Shown: piece after piece, positions 22,836 through 62,650 of the stretch
Position numbering within the stretch: the stretch's first letter is position 1
Layout of the letters: each line of letters opens with the position of its first letter
Source of the DNA: an uncultured bacterium
Lineage (GTDB): Bacteria; DYJV01
Assembly: GCA_964543655.1 (NCBI GenBank)
Contig: CAZIZE010000063.1
Coordinates: 23,020-87,019, forward strand
Direction of reading: 5' to 3'
DNA length: 64,000 nt
Position numbers and translations under genes: made by a program
The notes under the pieces: generated by a model
What the model was told of the DNA's origin: nothing
Databases searched by the model: none
The model's input: the letters and a program-made list of their open reading frames with translations, nothing else

Positions 22836-23673
22836 TAAACTCCTCCTTGACTTTGTAATTAAAATTATTTAATAAACTTAATGTTTTTTTATTTATTTTA
22901 TCTCTTTCCCTATCAAAAAACCAGCCCCATTTGTTGAAATATTTAATAGCAGAAATTAAATGAATTAACAAGTATTTAATTTTTCTATACGATAAGCTGG
23001 CTCTTTTATGTAATGCCTCTATTTCAGGAAAATAAATTGTATAAAAATATTTAGCAACCCTTCTAACAAAGTCAACATCTTCCATATATAGAAAAAATCT
23101 TTCATCAAAATAGCCAACTTTTTTGAATGCATTACTGCTAATAAATAAGCAGCAACCTGAAAGATTGGGTACAAATTGAATTTGCTCTTTTTTCATTGCT
23201 TCAAGATTGTAAAAATCTATTGATTTTTTAAAAAAATTTGGAAAAAATCTTTTAGAGAAAAGGTTAAATGGCGTTGGAATTAAATGGCATGTTGAGGAAA
23301 GATGGTATTCCTCTGTATTGTGTAAAACTTTTGGTGCTAAGATGCCTATTTCTTTATTGTTAATCATAAAATTGTATGCTTTTTCAATATGTTTAGCTTC
23401 AATAAATATATCAGGATTTAAAATTAAAAATATTTCTGATTTTTCTATATATTTTCTAAAAACTATATTGTGACCCTTGCCAAAGCCTAAATTTTTTCCT
23501 GTTTTTATATATTCTATGGCAAATTTGCTTAATAATGATTCATTTAAACTATTCTGGCTATTATCAACAATACATATTCTTTTCTTTAACCTAACTTTGT
23601 TAAGCTCTTTTAATATAGGCTCTATTTCATGAAAAGTGTTATTGTATAATACCATTGAAATAATTATTTCCAT
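22816..23673 (-). CDS. Family 2 glycosyltransferase-like protein
   Basis: GT2-like N-terminus (ISMVLYNNTFHEIEPILKEL...CIVDNSQN) and DxD-like (YMEDVD). Confidence 0.6.
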   Translation of the reverse strand: MEIIISMVLYNNTFHEIEPILKELNKVRLKKRICIVDNSQNSLNESLLSKFAIEYIKTGKNLGFGKGHNIVFRKYIEKSEIFLILNPDIFIEAKHIEKAYNFMINNKEIGILAPKVLHNTEEYHLSSTCHLIPTPFNLFSKRFFPNFFKKSIDFYNLEAMKKEQIQFVPNLSGCCLFISSNAFKKVGYFDERFFLYMEDVDFVRRVAKYFYTIYFPEIEALHKRASLSYRKIKYLLIHLISAIKYFNKWGWFFDRERDKINKKTLSLLNNFNYKVKEEFNEEKFD

Positions 23674-35712: not shown

Positions 35713-35720
35713 AAATATCT

Positions 35721-35752
35721 ATTATACAAAACCAACCTTGAATTAAGAGATT
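35721..35752 (+). repeat. Direct repeat copy A (32 nt; ATTATACAAAACCAACCTTGAATTAAGAGATT)
   Basis: Matches copy B at 35984-36015 at 31 of 32 positions. Confidence 0.8.
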
Positions 35753-35788
35753 GTTAGCGCTGAAGCCTTTAAATAGTTGTCAGTTATT

Positions 35789-35923
35789 AGTTCAAAGTTC
35801 AAGGTTAAAAGTTAAATCAGGATTTGGGATTTAGGGATTAGGAATAAGTAGGGGCAATTTATGAATTGCCATTACGGGATATTATATAAGTTTACAGTTC
35901 AACGTTCATAGTTCAATGTTGAA
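35789..35923 (+). repeat. Two clusters of tandem heptamer repeats (unit AGTTCAA) and a GGGATT triplet flanking a perfect hairpin (GGCAATT-TATG-AATTGCC at 35853-35870)
   Basis: 35789-35816 AGTTCAA AGTTCAA GGTTAAA AGTTAAA; 35821-35846 GGGATTT AGGGATT AGGAATA; 35896-35923 AGTTCAA CGTTCAT AGTTCAA TGTTGAA. Confidence 0.7.
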
Positions 35924-35983
35924 AAATACTTTAATAACAGTAAGTTAAAAATATTGCAAATGTCATTTCAAGTAGAAAACTGT

Positions 35984-36015
35984 ATTATATAAAACCAACC
36001 TTGAATTAAGAGATT
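35984..36015 (+). repeat. Direct repeat copy B (32 nt), followed by the palindrome GGGCTTAAGCCC
   Basis: 31 of 32 identity to copy A; the following 25 nt differ between copies but both are GC-richer stem-like segments. Confidence 0.8.
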
Positions 36016-36168
36016 TTTCGGGCTTAAGCCCTCAAAATGACTGTTTTGATGGCAGAGAGGAGCACTGTGTGAAAAAATTACTGTTGGGTTTTACATTTGG
36101 TTTTGGATAAGAGCACCTATAAAAAACAAAGTTGGATTTTATACTTGGCTCTGTATTGGTTATAAAAA

Positions 36169-36240
36169 GCTGGTAAGGGGAATTGAACCCCTGACATGCT
36201 GATTACGAATCAGCTGCTCTACCATCTGAGCTATACCAGC
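36169..36240 (-). tRNA. tRNA-Thr (anticodon CGU)
   Basis: Reverse complement GCTGGTATAGCTCAGATGGTAGAGCAGCTGATTCGTAATCAGCATGTCAGGGGTTCAATTCCCCTTACCAGC folds as a cloverleaf (7-bp acceptor, GCTC/GAGC D stem, anticodon loop TTCGTAA, GGTTCAATT T-loop); CCA is not encoded. Confidence 0.85.
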
Positions 36241-36245
36241 AGATT

Positions 36246-38339
36246 TTAATTTCCCATTATTTCATTATAAGCTTTTATTAGCATTTCTCTGTAATATTCT
36301 ATATCATAAGAATCAGCAATTTGTCTAATTTTTACTCGCTCTTCTGAGACTTTGCTTCTATTATCTGTAATTACATATTCTACACTTTCGCCAGGTTGTA
36401 TATTGGTGAGAGAAGATGCAGCAATTATATTTAGATTTTTATTTTTATATGAAGATATAGGTTTTGAAACTCTTTTTTTTATTACCAGTTCATCAATATT
36501 GACCTCTCCATTTTGTAACAGTAGAAGATATTCTTTTAAAATTTTATTAGCGCGTTTATAATCTGGGAAAATTTTTAACAATTTTTGCTGAAAATTTTTT
36601 ATAAATATAGGGGTGTCCCTTTTTCTAAGCATCAGTCCTCTTACCTTTATTTTGCCATTATCAAATATGCCAAAAAATTTATTCATAACCTGTTTATTTT
36701 TATTCTCTGCTGAAGGAAGAAATTTAATGAATTGATAAATCCCTTCTATGTTGAGGATAAAACCAGTTTTAGTTGATATTTCTTTTGCAATATTTGTATA
36801 TTCTTCTCTTGTGGCATTTTTTTTATATATGTAGAGAGAGTCAGTTACTGCATAAATAATTTTAAACCCACTATTTTCAGCTATTTCTTTTGCTTTTAGT
36901 AGAATATCTCTGCCAGCAGCAGTTGTTGCTTCATGAGCTTCTACACATCCAAATTTTGCATTTTTATATCCTAAATAACCAAAGCAAGTAACGAGCATCC
37001 ATTTTATAGCATTCTGTCTATTTTTAAAAACTTCACTTGCTTTAAAATTTTTGTAAAGCTTTCTTTTTTTTAATAAAGGAGATATTGTCTCCGGGATAAT
37101 ACCTTGTTTTTTCTGACAAAAATAGTAATTAGTGCCAGGTATTTTAAGCTTTTCTGAAATATGCTGGCAACATTTGCAGTTTAATGTTTCAACTGATATG
37201 TTGAATTTTTCAATTATTGATGGATACATTGAAAAAAAGTCAACTTCTGCTACATTCTTGAAAATACCTACAGGTGGCAGGAAAAATAGACCACCTTTGT
37301 CAACTTTTATAAAATCTATTGCCCTTTTGAACCTTTCTGGAAAGGCTTTGTGTGAAGGAATAAGGTAATTATTTTTATAAGCTGTTTTTAGCTCCATTGT
37401 GGATATTGAGGAGCCAGGAGAAATTCTCGCAGCTTCTTGCAAAGGAAGTGAAGTGAGCCGTGCCACTTCTATTAACCCGTCAATTCCAGAATTTTTTACA
37501 AAAAAAGAATTATTAATGTCTATATGAATTCTACCTTTAAGATAGCTTATACTATCTTTAAATACTACTTTACCGTATGAAAAAAAGGAGTAAGATTTTT
37601 TTGATACAATTTTCAGATTATCTGTAGGTCTTGAGAGGGGTATATCTATGTTATATTTTTGGGCTCCAAACTTTATTAGGGGAATAATTACAGGATCTCC
37701 TGATAATGTAATAACCATATCAGGATCATATTCTTTAAAAATATTTCCAATGGAAATAAAAAATTCTTCTGTATCAAATTTTTCAAAAAAAAGTTTCTCT
37801 CCATTGGGCATGGTAATATCAATACCTGTCCATTGTGAATACTTTGGATTGCCCTTGCACACAGGGAATATGCCTAAAATGTTTAAAGGTGGTAATTTGT
37901 AATTTATATCCATGGGATTGTCTAAAGATTTAATAGAGATAATATGGTTGTTATTATGTGTTACTTCAACTTTTGCAAATGGAAAAAGATTGTGCTCAAA
38001 GTAAAATTGCAACAGAGGTGAAAGGTCAGAGTTGTAGACTCCTATATTTTCCTGGTTAAGAAGATAAGCTTTTACATTCCAGAAATTTTTAATATCCATT
38101 TTTATACCATAAACTTTTACCTTTTTTCCTGTGTAAATTTCTCCCATTTCTGTAGAGTAAAATGAAATTTTAAAAAATTTAGATAAATTTTTAATAAATT
38201 TATATGATGATTTAACATAAAGTGTAGGAGTGTAATTAAAGTATAGAAAAGATTTGCTTGCTTCATTATTAACTAAACATAGGAGCAATTTATTGTTATC
38301 AATAAAAGTATCAAGGAGAAAAAGTTCATTCTTTTTCAT
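36246..38339 (-). CDS. Family B DNA polymerase (Pol II / archaeal PolB-like) lacking the 3'-5' exonuclease catalytic motifs
   Basis: Motif A DFFSMYPSII, motif B KWMLVTCFGYLGY, motif C IYAVTDSLYI (YxDTDS), KxY-region NKFFGIFDNGKIKVRGL, plus PolB-typical GRIHIDI and GIIPETISPLLKKRKLYK. Exo I (DxE) and Exo II (NxxxFDxxY) positions are replaced (LLDTF; ITLSGDPVIIPLI). Confidence 0.8.
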   Translation of the reverse strand: MKKNELFLLDTFIDNNKLLLCLVNNEASKSFLYFNYTPTLYVKSSYKFIKNLSKFFKISFYSTEMGEIYTGKKVKVYGIKMDIKNFWNVKAYLLNQENIGVYNSDLSPLLQFYFEHNLFPFAKVEVTHNNNHIISIKSLDNPMDINYKLPPLNILGIFPVCKGNPKYSQWTGIDITMPNGEKLFFEKFDTEEFFISIGNIFKEYDPDMVITLSGDPVIIPLIKFGAQKYNIDIPLSRPTDNLKIVSKKSYSFFSYGKVVFKDSISYLKGRIHIDINNSFFVKNSGIDGLIEVARLTSLPLQEAARISPGSSISTMELKTAYKNNYLIPSHKAFPERFKRAIDFIKVDKGGLFFLPPVGIFKNVAEVDFFSMYPSIIEKFNISVETLNCKCCQHISEKLKIPGTNYYFCQKKQGIIPETISPLLKKRKLYKNFKASEVFKNRQNAIKWMLVTCFGYLGYKNAKFGCVEAHEATTAAGRDILLKAKEIAENSGFKIIYAVTDSLYIYKKNATREEYTNIAKEISTKTGFILNIEGIYQFIKFLPSAENKNKQVMNKFFGIFDNGKIKVRGLMLRKRDTPIFIKNFQQKLLKIFPDYKRANKILKEYLLLLQNGEVNIDELVIKKRVSKPISSYKNKNLNIIAASSLTNIQPGESVEYVITDNRSKVSEERVKIRQIADSYDIEYYREMLIKAYNEIMGN

Positions 38340-38565
38340 GTAGCGTTCTGATTTCTTTTAAAAGCTCTATGCACATTGATAACAATATACCTTCCATTGG
38401 CAGGGGGAAAGAGGAATAAGCGCATGCTTGAATATGTTTTCTTGCTTTTTCCCATAATTCATCAAATATCTCTTGATCCTCTTTTCGAAGTGCGCGTCTA
38501 AAATCTTTGAGATTGCTTTTTTCTCTGTTTAATACGTATGTAAAAGGTGCAACTGTCCTGCCCAT
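38326..38565 (-). CDS. Hypothetical small protein (79 aa) within the lexA-polB operon
   Basis: ORF overlapping both neighbours (14 nt with polB, 37 nt with the RecA-fold gene); no recognisable domain. Confidence 0.35.
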   Translation of the reverse strand: MGRTVAPFTYVLNREKSNLKDFRRALRKEDQEIFDELWEKARKHIQACAYSSFPLPMEGILLSMCIELLKEIRTLHEKE

Positions 38566-39068
38566 AGCTTATTAACCCCTTTTTTTAGATGAAGTGGCTT
38601 TACAATAGATGTATCTTCTATAAATACTTTGCTCTTCTTTTCCACTATTTTATAGTATCCTCTTCTATCAAATCTATTTAAAGTTATAATAGCAGGTGAT
38701 ATGTGAGATAGATAAGATAGAGATTTTCTAAAAATTTTCATTGCATGTATATGAGAAATATTGTCATCATCAAGCAGGGTAGTAAAACCCAGTAGTATAA
38801 ATAGAAAATTTTTACCTGTTTTTTTGAAAAAGAGAATTTTCTCTATAAGTTTTAACATTTGAAATGGTGTGAAAGCTCGGGCAATAAATATATTTTCAAG
38901 AATGGTGTATGGTGTAATTTTCATTGCTACACAGATATTTGATATAAGGTATGGGTCAAATTTGTTTGCAGCATCAACAACAATGATATTGGAATTATCT
39001 CTGAAAATAGCCCTGATATAGTACCAGATAAATTTGTGAATCCCTGAATTACCAGCAACTGCAATCAT
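38529..39068 (-). CDS. RecA-fold protein with a degenerate Walker A (ImuA/SulA-like)
   Basis: IAVAGNSGIHKF (degenerate P-loop) then IIVVDAANKFDPYLISNICVAMKI, which aligns to RecA [21 protein letters not shown]. A later hydrophobic strand ends in DDD (FLFILLGFTTLLDDD), like RecA VIVVDSV. 179 aa, similar in size to SulA or ImuA. Confidence 0.5.
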   Translation of the reverse strand: MIAVAGNSGIHKFIWYYIRAIFRDNSNIIVVDAANKFDPYLISNICVAMKITPYTILENIFIARAFTPFQMLKLIEKILFFKKTGKNFLFILLGFTTLLDDDNISHIHAMKIFRKSLSYLSHISPAIITLNRFDRRGYYKIVEKKSKVFIEDTSIVKPLHLKKGVNKLWAGQLHLLHTY

Positions 39069-39682
39069 GATATTTTCCTTATTATCCCAACAACTTTACC
39101 TATTATTTTAACTTCATCAGGATTGATATTGTTAAGGATAATATCTTCATATTTATCATTTTCAGGATGAAGAATGATAAGGTTGTCCTTTTTTATAAAT
39201 CTCTTTAAAGTAATTTCATTGTAAATAGATGCAACAACAATGTCGTTATGCTCAACATTAGAATCAGTTGATACCACAGCAATATCTCCATCTTCAATAA
39301 GAGCATTTATCATTGAATCACCAATAACTTTAAACATAAAAATATTAGAAAATGGAAAAATTTTAGTATCAACAATGTAGTAATCTTCTGCAACTTCGTT
39401 AATATCAATTGGTGAACCAGCAGCTACATAAGATATAAGAGGAGCTTTTTTTATATTACTGGCTGGCTCTTCAATAGAAAGAGATATACCTCTGGAGATT
39501 TTTTTCTCTTTTTTTAAATATCCCTTTTTTTCTAAAATAGTAACATATTTGAAAGCATTTTTAGGTGCAATGCGAAAATGTTCAGCTATCTCTCTAATGG
39601 TAGGGGGCAGCCCCCTGTTATGTAAAAAATCTTTAATAAATAGATAGACTTCTTTTTCTTTTAATGTAATATTGGGTAACAT
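39065..39682 (-). CDS. lexA: LexA repressor
   Basis: N-terminal wHTH (LKEKEVYLFIKDFLHNRGLPPTIREIAEHFRIAPKNAFKYVTILEKKGYL), Ala-Gly cleavage site VAAGSP, catalytic Ser in VIGDSM and Lys in ITLKRF. Confidence 0.9.
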   Translation of the reverse strand: MLPNITLKEKEVYLFIKDFLHNRGLPPTIREIAEHFRIAPKNAFKYVTILEKKGYLKKEKKISRGISLSIEEPASNIKKAPLISYVAAGSPIDINEVAEDYYIVDTKIFPFSNIFMFKVIGDSMINALIEDGDIAVVSTDSNVEHNDIVVASIYNEITLKRFIKKDNLIILHPENDKYEDIILNNINPDEVKIIGKVVGIIRKIS

Positions 39683-39717
39683 ATGTTACCTATAGTTGAA
39701 AAAAATATTTTTGTCAA
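39675..39717 (-). promoter_or_regulatory. Candidate lexA promoter/operator: imperfect 22-bp inverted repeat TTGACAAAAAT|ATTTTTTTCAA containing a consensus -35 TTGACA, plus a perfect 16-bp palindrome GGTAACATATGTTACC spanning the lexA start codon
   Basis: In lexA sense: TTGACA-N17-TATAGG then AGGTAACAT-ATG. The 22-bp inverted repeat at 39696-39717 matches at 10 of 11 positions per arm. Confidence 0.4.
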
Positions 39718-39797
39718 GTTTTTTATGAAAATTAGTTATTGTGTTTTAATTTTACTAATGCTAATGAAGTGCACATTTGAAATTTTATGGAGAAGAA

Positions 39798-41624
39798 ATG
39801 AAAAAACGTAATCAAAAAATTAGAAATATTGCAATAATTGCCCATGTTGATCATGGTAAAACTTACCTTGTTGATAGCTTGTTTAAATATTGTGGAATGT
39901 TTAGAGAAAATCAGAATGTTGAAGATAGGGTTCTTGATAATATGGAGCTTGAAAAGGAGCGTGGTATTACAATAGCAGCAAAGAATTGCTCAATTTTCTG
40001 GAGAAATGTAAAGATAAATATAATTGATACTCCTGGGCATGCTGATTTTGGCGGAGAAGTGGAGAGAGCACTTTCAATGGCTGATGGAGCTATTTTACTT
40101 GTTGATGCGTCTGAGGGACCAATGCCCCAAACAAGATTTGTGCTGCAAAAGGCACTATCTTCAGGTTTAAAAATTATAGTGGTTATAAACAAAATAGATA
40201 GAAGTGATGCAAGACCAGATGAAGTTCTGGATGAAATTTATGAGCTTTTTTTTGATCTTGACGCAAGTGATGAGCAGATAGATTTTCCTTTGTTGTATGC
40301 AATTGGCAGGGAAGGTATAGTAAAAAGAGAGCTTGAGCATGAAAATGGTGATATGGGAATTTTACTTGATACAATTTTAAAGGAGATTGAAGGGCCTGAA
40401 TATATAGAAAATGAGCCGTTTCAAATGCTTGTATCTGATCTTGGATATTCTGAATATCTTGGACGGCTTGCTATTGGAAAGGTATTTAATGGAGAAGTAA
40501 AGCAGAATGATACATTAATATGCATAAATGAGAAAAATGAAAATATTCCTTTAAAAGTTACTAAAATACAATCTTATGTGGGTATGACTCTGAAAGATGC
40601 TGATGTTTCAGAGAGAGGAGATATAATAGTTATTTCAGGTATTGAAAATGTAAAAATAGGTGACACTATTTGCAGAGCAGACAATCCTAAACCTCTTAAA
40701 AGAATAAGGGTTGATGAGCCAACTGTTTCTATGAAATTTACCATTAATACCTCTCCTTTTGCTGGTATGGAAGGGAAATTTGTGCAGGCAACCAAAATTA
40801 AAGATAGGTTATTTAAAGAAACATTAAGGAATGTAGCTATTAAATTGGAAGAAACTGATGATAAAGACACTTTTATTGTAAAAGGTAGAGGAGAATTTCA
40901 GCTTGCAATTATTATTGAAACAATGAGACGAGAAGGATTTGAATTTAGCGTTGGTAGACCTGAAGTTATTTTTAAAAAAGAAAATGGCAAACTACTTGAG
41001 CCAATGGAGCATGTTTATATAGATTGTAATGAATCTTTCATGGGTGTTGTTACAGAGAAACTTTCCATTAGAAAGGGGAGAATGGTAAATATGGTTAATA
41101 AAGGCAGTGGCAGAGTTAGAATTGAGTTTACTATTCCTTCCAGAGGATTAATAGGTTACAGAGATGAGTTTTTATCAGATACCAAAGGGACAGGTATTTT
41201 AAATTCATTTTTTGAAGGTTATGACGAATATAGAGGTGATTTTCCATCAAGGTTCACTGGCTCTCTTGTTTCAGATAGAAAAGGTAAAGCTGTTGCGTAT
41301 GCGCTTTTTCATCTTGAGCCAAGAGGACGGTTATTTATTACACCAGGAAAAGAGGTTTATGAAGGTATGGTAATTGGTGAAAATAATAAAGCAATGGATC
41401 TTGATGTAAATCCATGTAAAGAGAAAAAATTGACAAATTTAAGAGCAGCAGGGAAGGATGAAAATATAATTTTAAAACCAGTTCTTCCTTTAACTCTGGA
41501 ACAAGCCATTCATTTTATTGCAGATGATGAATTAATAGAGGTTACACCTAAATCTATTAGAATAAGAAAAGAGATTCTTTCAGCACAAAAAAGGAGAAAT
41601 ATAAAGAGCAGGAAAAGTAGTTAA
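39798..41624 (+). CDS. typA: Translational GTPase TypA/BipA
   Basis: IRNIAIIAHVDHGKTYLVDSL, DTPGHADF, NKIDR G-motifs and EF-G-like domains; start set at the ATG after GGAGA rather than the TTG at 39777. Confidence 0.95.
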   Translation: MKKRNQKIRNIAIIAHVDHGKTYLVDSLFKYCGMFRENQNVEDRVLDNMELEKERGITIAAKNCSIFWRNVKINIIDTPGHADFGGEVERALSMADGAILLVDASEGPMPQTRFVLQKALSSGLKIIVVINKIDRSDARPDEVLDEIYELFFDLDASDEQIDFPLLYAIGREGIVKRELEHENGDMGILLDTILKEIEGPEYIENEPFQMLVSDLGYSEYLGRLAIGKVFNGEVKQNDTLICINEKNENIPLKVTKIQSYVGMTLKDADVSERGDIIVISGIENVKIGDTICRADNPKPLKRIRVDEPTVSMKFTINTSPFAGMEGKFVQATKIKDRLFKETLRNVAIKLEETDDKDTFIVKGRGEFQLAIIIETMRREGFEFSVGRPEVIFKKENGKLLEPMEHVYIDCNESFMGVVTEKLSIRKGRMVNMVNKGSGRVRIEFTIPSRGLIGYRDEFLSDTKGTGILNSFFEGYDEYRGDFPSRFTGSLVSDRKGKAVAYALFHLEPRGRLFITPGKEVYEGMVIGENNKAMDLDVNPCKEKKLTNLRAAGKDENIILKPVLPLTLEQAIHFIADDELIEVTPKSIRIRKEILSAQKRRNIKSRKSS

Positions 41625-61537: not shown

Positions 61538-62650
61538 ATGGATTTTGAACATGGTGGAAATATTATTCAGATGAGCAGAAACCTTGGAGTTGAAGAAAGT
61601 GAATTATTAGATTTTAGTGTAAATATTAATCCATTAGGTTTCCCTGAAAACTTTAAAAAAGTTATAATTGATAATATTAATAAATTAAGCTTTTACCCAG
61701 AAATTTATTCTCAATCATTAAAAGAGGAAATTTCAGCACAATTATCAATCTCTTCTGATAATATTGCAGTAGGTAATGGCTCCACTCAGCTTATTTATTG
61801 TTTGCCAGAAGTATTGAAATTGAAAAAAGCAGTTGTAGTGGAACCAACATTTTCAGAGTATAAAAAAGCATTAATCAGATATAATTGTAAAGTAGAAACA
61901 TTTATGTTAAATGAAGTTGATAATTTTATTATAGATGTTGAGCTATTAATTAACTTTTTGCAACAGAGAGAATTTGATGCACTTTTTCTATGTAATCCCA
62001 ACAATCCCAATGGTTATTTAGTAAAAACAGATGAATTGAAAAAGCTTTCAGAGTTTATGGAAAAGAGTCGAAAATTTTTAATAATTGATGAGGCGTTTAT
62101 TGATTTTACTGGAGAAAGAAGTTTTAGCAGCTTTCAATACAATTATATTGTTATTTTAAAATCCCTAACAAAGATTTTTGCAATTCCTGGGTTGAGGCTT
62201 GGATATTTAAAGGCTAACAGAACTATTATAGAAAGTATAGAAAAAATTTTAGAGCCCTGGTCAGTAAATATATTTAGCCAACTAATAGGAATAGAAACTT
62301 TAAAACAGGATAAGTTTATTGAAAATACAAAAAAATTCCTTGAAAAAGAAAGAGATTTTGTTGTAAAAGAACTCTCTAAAATTAAAGGAATAAAAATCTT
62401 TCCTTCTTATACAAATTATTTGCTTATTAAAATTTTAACATCTGTTAATGTTAATCAATTGGAAAAATATCTTTTGTGTAAAAAGATTTTAATAAGAAAT
62501 TGTTCAAATTTTTATGGATTAGATGAAAAGTTTTTTAGAATATCGATAAATGATCGTAATTCTAACATAAAATTGATTAAGGAATTAAAAGAATTTTTTC
62601 AAATTAATTTAGCAGGAAAGGGAGAAAATGAGGGAACTTTTCAAAGGTGA
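61538..62650 (+). CDS. cobD: L-threonine-O-3-phosphate decarboxylase CobD (class I/II aminotransferase fold)
   Basis: [66 protein letters not shown] parallel the Salmonella CobD signature blocks. Confidence 0.75.

Follow-up and report, generated by a model that had tools for sequence, protein, structure and literature searches.

A probable LexA-regulated PolB2 mutasome operon, lexA-iRadA-PPB2-polB2, in the genome of an uncultured bacterium

We analyzed a stretch of 64,000 nucleotides (nt) of DNA, hereafter the window, from an uncultured bacterium (GTDB lineage Bacteria; DYJV01), corresponding to positions 23,020 to 87,019 of the forward strand of contig CAZIZE010000063.1 in NCBI GenBank assembly GCA_964543655.1. 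The window carries four overlapping minus-strand genes that begin with lexA and end with the gene for a family-B DNA polymerase, and very probably they form a LexA-regulated bacterial PolB2 mutasome operon, lexA-iRadA-PPB2-polB2. What we observed directly, and set out below, is the gene order, the overlaps, the family membership of the proteins, their motif states and folds, and the conservation of the putative promoter and operator sites and of the cassette as a whole. A first-pass annotation made from the sequence alone had put the locus forward as a candidate undescribed system. That proposal did not survive: the four-gene system is already published (PMC4104785, PMC11791011, PMC12926913), and the locus is a member of a known family and conceptually nothing new. 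The features of the locus are as follows (positions in the window).

39065-39682, minus strand: lexA, 205 amino acids (aa), SOS repressor with an S24 self-cleaving peptidase.
38529-39068, minus strand: iRadA (orf179), 179 aa, inactivated Rad51/RadA-core protein, N-terminal domain absent.
38326-38565, minus strand: PPB2 (orf79), 79 aa, arCOG07300 / PF26485 DUF8156, small helical PolB2 partner.
36246-38339, minus strand: PolB2 (polB), 697 aa, B-family polymerase belonging to the PolB2 group, which derives from archaea.
39689-39717, minus strand: putative sigma-70-type promoter, read from sequence, TTGACA at 39717-39712, 17-nt spacer, TATAGG at 39694-39689.
39675-39690, no strand assigned: candidate LexA operator, palindrome GGTAAC-ATAT-GTTACC.
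36168-36240, minus strand: tRNA-Thr(CGT), a transfer RNA (tRNA) gene adjoining the polB2 3' end.

All four open reading frames (ORFs) of the first-pass annotation (lexA, orf179, orf79 and polB) were confirmed at their earlier coordinates. They lie on one strand in the order iRadA-PPB2-PolB2 with lexA leading, and they overlap head to tail by 4 nt (lexA/iRadA), 37 nt (iRadA/PPB2), and 14 nt (PPB2/polB). The 37-nt overlap (38529-38565) is read in two frames, encoding the iRadA C-terminus WAGQLHLLHTY in one and the PPB2 N-terminal arm MGRTVAPFTYVL in the other. Shine-Dalgarno sequences are present for both iRadA (AGGA) and PPB2 (AGGGG, 10 nt upstream). The same 37-nt overlap is kept in five of five members of the sub-clade described below, and in other lineages iRadA and PPB2 may lie as far as 238 nt apart or overlap by as much as 107 nt.

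The iRadA and PPB2 genes are fused in some bacteria, and in the window an A-AAA-AAA-G run lies just 5' of the overlap. A programmed -1 frameshift that would fuse the two proteins was nevertheless ruled out: a slip in the PPB2 frame terminates after two codons because two TAA stops directly precede the PPB2 ATG in that frame, and PPB2 also has its own Shine-Dalgarno sequence.

The cassette has a clear published counterpart. In several bacteria a PolB2 homologue, an arCOG07300 homologue, and an inactivated radA are linked, and in some bacteria lexA joins the same predicted operon, the example being LFML04_0990-0993 of Leptospirillum ferriphilum (Makarova, Krupovic, and Koonin 2014; PMC4104785). 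The names PolB2, PPB2, and iRadA come from Timinskas, Timinskas, and Venclovas (2025; PMC11791011), who reported that bacteria acquired the operon from archaea by horizontal transfer, that iRadA-PPB2-PolB2 is the sole bacterial order, that lexA is enriched nearby, and that AlphaFold models support a PolB2:iRadA:PPB2(3) heteropentamer. The same study supplies diagnostic features. In PolB2 the first Asp of D-x-D is lost, the exonuclease domain has no active site, and a D(K/R) loop is preceded by an element like the Rad51 oligomerization motif, which binds iRadA; PPB2, a helical protein of ∼80-90 aa, has an MGRT N-terminal arm, and a beta-clamp motif is found on iRadA or on PolB2, rarely on both. 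The designation G2/PolB2 is used for the group in a 2026 survey (PMC12926913). Among the archaeal members, Sulfolobus Dpo2 is an active polymerase that has no exonuclease and extends mismatched and lesion-opposed termini (PMC8764526); it is damage inducible and solely responsible for targeted mutagenesis (PMC7390963).

We compared the window proteins with published sequences taken from the supplement of PMC11791011. Over 72 aa, orf79 shared 38% identity with a published PPB2 (BLASTP, E 8e-19), orf179 was 26% identical to a published iRadA (E 4e-9), and PolB was 33% identical, colinearly, to the N-terminal 399 aa of L. ferriphilum PolB2 (E 6e-65). The 79-aa protein, left unexplained by the first-pass annotation, is hereby identified as PPB2 (arCOG07300). 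It begins MGRTVAPFT, with the diagnostic MGRT, and the precomputed Pfam annotation assigns it to PF26485 (DUF8156); local profile libraries, including a local copy of Pfam, returned no match to orf79. An MGRT start was found in 70 of the 73 PPB2 ORFs collected from related loci.

The polymerase itself matched PF00136 (E 4e-32). Its best NCBIfam models are archaeal type-B polymerases, all of which scored under their cut-offs, and it reached 99.5 bits with the Pol II model NF004421, for which the cut-off is 570. Residue conservation was read from an alignment of the window PolB with 29 homologues (30 sequences). The first-pass annotation had credited the protein with every polymerase motif, and here it has to be corrected: motif C reads Y496-A-V498-T499-D500-S, in which Val stands where the canonical D-x-D has its first Asp, a hallmark of PolB2, and the supposed KxY is N-K554-F555. 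Every one of the 30 sequences has I, L, or V at position 498, and D500 is invariant. Also invariant in 30 of 30 are motif A Asp367, motif B K446, Y455/G457, and K565-x-R567-G568. The loop motif D347-K348 is conserved as well (D347 invariant, K or R at 348 in 30/30), and the FxxA element that precedes it has F337 in 27 and A340 in 28 of the 30 sequences.

Is such a polymerase still an enzyme? PolB2 might instead be catalytically dead and act, together with iRadA and PPB2, as a structural or regulatory DNA-binding scaffold. The older view of PolB2 as inactive is reportedly that of Rogozin (2008). In favor of a scaffold are motif C, which is V-T-D in the window and I/L/V-x-D in all 30 sequences, and the inactivation of iRadA as well, and this is the interpretation given in PMC4104785. 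However, Sulfolobus Dpo2, which has I-I-D at the corresponding place, is a robust polymerase and is needed for damage-induced mutagenesis (PMC8764526, PMC7390963), and the invariance of Asp367, Asp500, K446, Y455/G457, and K565-x-R567-G568 is hard to explain without catalysis. We consider it improbable that PolB2 is a dead scaffold and retain the reading of an active mutasome polymerase.

An AlphaFold2 (AF2) model of PolB reached a predicted local distance difference test (pLDDT) score of 92.1 and a predicted template modeling (pTM) score of 0.90. In Foldseek comparisons, the model matched archaeal PolB structures with a template modeling (TM) score of ∼0.75, and E. coli Pol II (3k5m) with a TM score of 0.75. 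Its sole low-confidence stretch is residues 331-350 (pLDDT 59-66), which span the FxxA and D-K elements. This would fit a partner-binding loop that is disordered when PolB is modeled alone.

The loss of the exonuclease site, asserted in the first-pass annotation from the Exo I and Exo II residues, is borne out. No Pfam exonuclease-domain model matched PolB at E<=1. The position of the Exo II catalytic Asp is Ile218 in an alignment to P. abyssi PolB, and all 30 sequences have L or I there. The Exo III segment, measured between two anchors, is ∼78 aa compared to ∼123 aa, that is, ∼45 aa shorter, and does not align. The placement of Exo I is ambiguous. A profile hidden Markov model (HMM) alignment puts S138 at the Asp position and D140 at the Glu position, and the earlier placement is the strand 154-161, which the strand order also allows; neither restores an intact D-x-E. 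The five commonest residues in the Exo I Asp column of the family include no acidic one. As judged from these alignments, the exonuclease domain of PolB2 is decayed and its active site is lost.

The first-pass annotation had described orf179 as ImuA- or SulA-like. Its RecA-superfamily fold and dead ATPase site stand, and the assignment to ImuA or SulA does not. The protein gave weak but consistent profile matches to RadA/Rad51/DMC1, and among eight aligned iRadA clade members, none matched ImuA, SulA, or RecA profiles at E<=1; only RadA, DMC1, and Rad51 models were matched. Walker A is degenerate (G6...H11-K12), with GK[ST] absent from all eight, and the Walker B Asp is replaced by an invariant Gly94. 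iRadA is a protein of the Rad51/RadA-type ATPase-core fold, not of the ImuA/SulA type, and it has lost the N-terminal domain and the ATPase residues.

These results bear on the idea that the locus is an undescribed B-family counterpart of lexA-imuA-imuB-dnaE2, with orf179 in the place of ImuA or SulA. There are real points of resemblance: orf179 belongs to the RecA superfamily and its P-loop is degenerate, lexA leads the operon, and the pairing of an error-prone polymerase, induced by damage, with an inactive accessory protein of RecA fold follows the logic of ImuA-ImuB-DnaE2, which is often LexA regulated and likewise joins a degenerate-ATPase RecA-fold protein to an error-prone polymerase. 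Against this, the eight clade members match RadA/DMC1/Rad51 models only, the operon has neither a Y-family ImuB-like gene nor DnaE2, and the cassette in its entirety corresponds to a family that is already published and that originated in archaea (PMC4104785, PMC11791011). The ImuA-ImuB-DnaE2 system is built on a C-family polymerase and an inactive Y-family scaffold, and ImuA, ImuB, and DnaE2 models searched against the four operon proteins gave no match at E<=1. The published analogy for the PolB2 mutasome is to Pol V and Pol zeta and not to ImuA-ImuB-DnaE2. An ImuA-type cassette is therefore a very improbable reading. Of the cassette logic first proposed, the outline of a LexA-led, damage-inducible translesion or mutagenic polymerase is retained within the PolB2 reading, and the ImuA-ImuB-DnaE2 plan is dropped.

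The iRadA C-terminus, ...LWAGQLHLLHTY, contains the element W-x-G-Q-L-H-x-L, which is invariant in the eight clade members. Its QLHLL resembles the beta-clamp motif QLxLF but ends in L (QLxLL). We can only guess that iRadA binds the beta-clamp through QLHLL. No clamp-type motif was found at the PolB C-terminus (...AYNEIMGN), and a clamp-like motif on iRadA with none on PolB agrees with the published either/or pattern.

Elsewhere in the family (loci L003-L082 of our set), iRadA ends QLRLF, QPRLF, or QLNMF in several Chloroflexota/Anaerolineae and in one member of Terriglobia. In Ignavibacteriota it is PolB2 that ends with Q(E)LPLFRIEI. The clamp motif thus "shuttles" between the two proteins, as published.

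We then turned to the regulatory side of the operon. The first gene had been called an unmistakable LexA, and this is correct: the protein scored 169.7 bits with TIGR00498 (curated cut-off, 110.95) and matched both PF01726 and PF00717, the winged-helix DNA-binding and S24 peptidase domains, and it has the Ala88-Gly89 cleavage site, Ser123 (in GDSM), and Lys160 (in LKRF). The sequence 5' of lexA reads TTGACA, 17 nt, TATAGG, TAACAT, ATG. We infer that TTGACA/TATAGG acts as the operon promoter. A generic promoter scan had passed over it; TATAGG lacks the T at position 6. The arrangement TTGACA-17/18-TATA(G/T)G recurs at an equal distance from the lexA ATG in the four orthologous loci L083, L084, L085, and L087.

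The palindrome GGTAAC-ATAT-GTTACC shares 2 nt with the end of the -10 element and runs across the lexA ATG (39680-39682). An exact match to GGTAAC-N4-GTTACC occurs once in the 64-kb window, where none is expected (100 shuffles), and a search of the window that allowed up to 2 mismatches found the lexA site alone. The palindrome sits at the same position in five of five orthologous loci, with arms of 10-12 nt in L083 and L085, and it is the single GTAAY-N4-RWTAC site in each locus of 10-22 kb. Its AAC-N4-GTT core resembles the Gram-positive-type LexA box GAAC-N4-GTTC. Taken together, these features point to GGTAAC-N4-GTTACC as a candidate LexA operator. The conserved placement of the palindrome over the start codon suggests that lexA is autoregulated, with both promoter and start site occluded by LexA. 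The lexA mRNA is probably leaderless, because no Shine-Dalgarno sequence precedes lexA and the -10 hexamer is just 6 nt from the ATG, which itself lies inside the palindrome; lambda cI transcribed from PRM is likewise a leaderless mRNA.

Two further ideas about operators were set aside. Other LexA boxes in the window (TAAC-N4-GTTA at 62436 and a degenerate pattern at 1708) are both intracoding and within chance expectation. An operator common across phyla was also rejected: the best palindromes 5' of lexA vary by lineage, and those 5' of cassette-linked lexA in other lineages include CTGAACA-N-TGTTCAG and ATTTTCG-N8-CGAAAAT (putative operators). The GGTAAC-N4-GTTACC box is clade specific, with the variation among lineages that is expected for LexA boxes.

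Divergently from lexA lies typA/bipA (39777-41624, plus strand; GTP_EFTU, EFG_C, and BipA_C domains). The lexA promoter/operator probably overlaps the typA upstream region, because only 94 nt separate the two start codons.

How widely is the cassette distributed? A search with PolB matched over 1,695 protein clusters with E<=1e-10, and a genome scan found relatives in at least 592 GTDB species genomes, in Acidobacteriota, Nitrospirota, Thermodesulfobacteriota, Chloroflexota, Ignavibacteriota, Bacteroidota, and other phyla. We examined gene neighborhoods by ORF and HMM analysis in 62 loci with at least 2.6 kb of upstream sequence. PPB2 was present in 59 of these, iRadA and PPB2 stood in the canonical order in 58, and lexA lay upstream on the same strand in 21 (34%). 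The grouping that the first-pass annotation had picked out in a single locus is thus recurrent across genomes, with the trio as its core and lexA as an addition in about a third.

Within the family, the window belongs to a small sub-clade with PolB of 673-700 aa, 45-62% mutual identity, and ∼35% identity to the rest. In four of its members, L083, L084, L085, and L087, the four-gene cassette is identical in makeup and nearly so in its overlaps, the flanking genes differ, and the PolB proteins are 54-62% identical to that of the window. The cassette is far beyond chance, because the same overlaps recur in these four relatives with different flanks. The sub-clade is compact and divergent compared to the bulk of the bacterial PolB2 family, in which PolB is ∼720-790 aa; unlike that bulk, its iRadA has just 176-179 aa, all its genes overlap, and the 37-nt out-of-frame iRadA/PPB2 overlap is clade specific. 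The locus further differs from the PolB2 family in that the lexA start codon lies within its own candidate operator, with an mRNA that is probably leaderless. The host, too, is distinct, a low-G+C uncultured lineage whose SecA is at best 62-64% identical to organism-named homologues, all of them proteins from metagenome-assembled genomes; the best of these are labeled Deltaproteobacteria, Thermodesulfobacteriota, or Nitrospirota.

Beyond polB2, and on its strand, the tRNA-Thr(CGT) gene follows the stop codon at a distance of 5 nt. The operon transcript may extend into this gene because no terminator lies between them; no convincing intrinsic terminator was found after polB. The first-pass annotation had drawn the locus as 36169-39717. 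Its start falls inside this tRNA gene, which the cassette lacks in relatives (the four close ones have no tRNA at the polB2 3' end), and the rest of the span holds the operon. An Rfam search over the whole window returned tRNA only. Between the tRNA and the convergent orf97 is a 455-nt noncoding gap (35713-36167) that contains an exact 23-nt direct repeat, TCTCTTAATTCAAGGTTGGTTTT, at 35728-35750 and 35991-36013 (minus strand), where chance predicts 0. Each copy is followed by (A/G)TATAAT and has no Rfam match. Possible explanations for the repeats are duplicated promoters, genes for small RNAs, and att-like remnants.

One potential explanation for this arrangement is that the cassette is a mobile-element or phage module (pipolin-, casposon-, or prophage-like) inserted beside a tRNA. 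The tRNA-Thr gene 5 nt past polB and the noncoding stretch with its direct repeat would agree with an insertion, as would the differing contexts of the cassette among relatives and the arrival of the family in bacteria by horizontal transfer (PMC11791011). However, no integrase, Cas1, terminal protein, or phage genes were found within 10 kb on either side, where the flanks are housekeeping genes (typA, secA, mnmA, bioA-like, guaA, and pdxJ). The G+C content of the cassette equals that of its flanks (0.29-0.31), the relatives have no adjacent tRNA, and the protein-priming features that mark pipolin-type PolBs are missing from the polymerase. We regard a mobile module as extremely unlikely and a resident PolB2 mutasome operon as the reading to keep.

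Approximately 7.5 kb past the polB2 end, on the window's contig (L001, 19649-21411), lie genes for a DNA methyltransferase (N6_N4_Mtase) and a DpnII-family restriction endonuclease, a type II restriction-modification pair that is unrelated to the operon.

The closest known counterpart is the Leptospirillum-type bacterial PolB2 operon, which shares with the window the four genes, their order and orientation, MGRT, I/L/V-x-D, D-K/R, and the decay of the exonuclease, as well as an iRadA without N-terminal domain or Walker motifs; where a clamp motif is sought, the candidate sequence is again on iRadA and not on PolB2. The Dpo2 system of Sulfolobales has the same three protein families and has also lost the motif C Asp and proofreading; damage inducible and with an extender role in translesion synthesis, it is the sole member studied experimentally. 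The archaeal system differs in its gene order (PPB2-PolB2-iRadA), in its regulation by Orc1-2/Tfb3 and not LexA, and in its PCNA-type clamp motifs.

E. coli Pol V (UmuD'2C-RecA-ATP) is similar in plan: it is a LexA-repressed multisubunit translesion polymerase that uses the beta-clamp, engages a RecA/Rad51-family protein through an oligomerization-like motif, and has a small subunit that inserts an N-terminal arm (PMC11791011). It differs in having a Y-family catalytic subunit, a RecA that is active and shared with the cell, and a small subunit that is an S24 peptidase fragment, and homology between the parts of the two systems is limited to RecA/RadA. E. coli Pol II, the classical SOS-induced B-family polymerase of bacteria, shares the B-family fold, and its LexA control, extender role, and use of the beta-clamp are what is predicted for PolB2 as well. 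Pol II, however, works as one subunit, its DEDDy exonuclease is intact, and its motif C is D-T-D.

Several points weigh against the reading of a functional LexA-regulated PolB2 mutasome. The searchable literature holds no experiments on any bacterial PolB2, so for bacteria it is an extrapolation that the enzyme is active, that the complex forms, and that damage induces the operon. Loss of the motif C Asp was once read as inactivation, and activity despite this loss has been shown for the Sulfolobus enzymes only. The near-invariant Asp140 may occupy the old Exo I Glu position. QLHLL ends in L where the canonical QLxLF ends in F, which makes clamp binding conjectural. The palindrome could be bound by another regulator, and from one site in 64 kb, a wider SOS regulon under this LexA cannot be judged.

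With these points in mind, the operon might work as follows. In an undamaged cell, LexA bound to the GGTAAC-N4-GTTACC site, whose identity as an operator we infer here, would cover the -10 element together with the lexA start codon and the point where transcription probably begins, and would thereby silence its own gene and the three tightly coupled genes downstream. Upon DNA damage, RecA on single-stranded DNA would trigger self-cleavage of LexA at Ala88-Gly89 by the Ser123/Lys160 dyad, a chemistry taken from the literature, and the operon would be derepressed. One PolB2, one iRadA, and a PPB2 trimer would then assemble; this heteropentamer comes from published AlphaFold models only. The F337-x-x-A340 / D347-K348 loop of PolB2 would hold iRadA, and the MGRT arm of PPB2 would sit between PolB2 and iRadA, near the DNA. 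The beta-clamp, if it does bind the QLHLL of iRadA, would bring the complex to stalled primer ends. There, proofreading-free translesion synthesis, chiefly the extension of mismatched or lesion-opposed primer ends as known from archaeal Dpo2 only, would give rise to mutations.

A bolder proposal is that in this sub-clade the four genes are a self-contained, portable, and autoregulated mutasome that moves as a unit, with a dedicated LexA paralogue whose leaderless mRNA has its start codon in the operator, and with a clamp tether supplied by the tail of a dead recombinase, a tail encoded out of frame by the same 37 nt as the MGRT arm. We regard this as unlikely. If it is true, the module would be the main route of SOS mutagenesis in a host without Pol V, DinB, and ImuABC.

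Bacterial PolB2 mutasomes are widespread, and the searchable literature contains no experimental study of one in a bacterium. The window offers an unusually compact, tightly overlapped version (697, 179, and 79 aa) with a clean, readily testable candidate LexA operator. The locus could suit biochemistry or cryo-electron microscopy of the predicted PolB2-iRadA-PPB2-clamp complex, and it could serve to show LexA control of a B-family mutasome.

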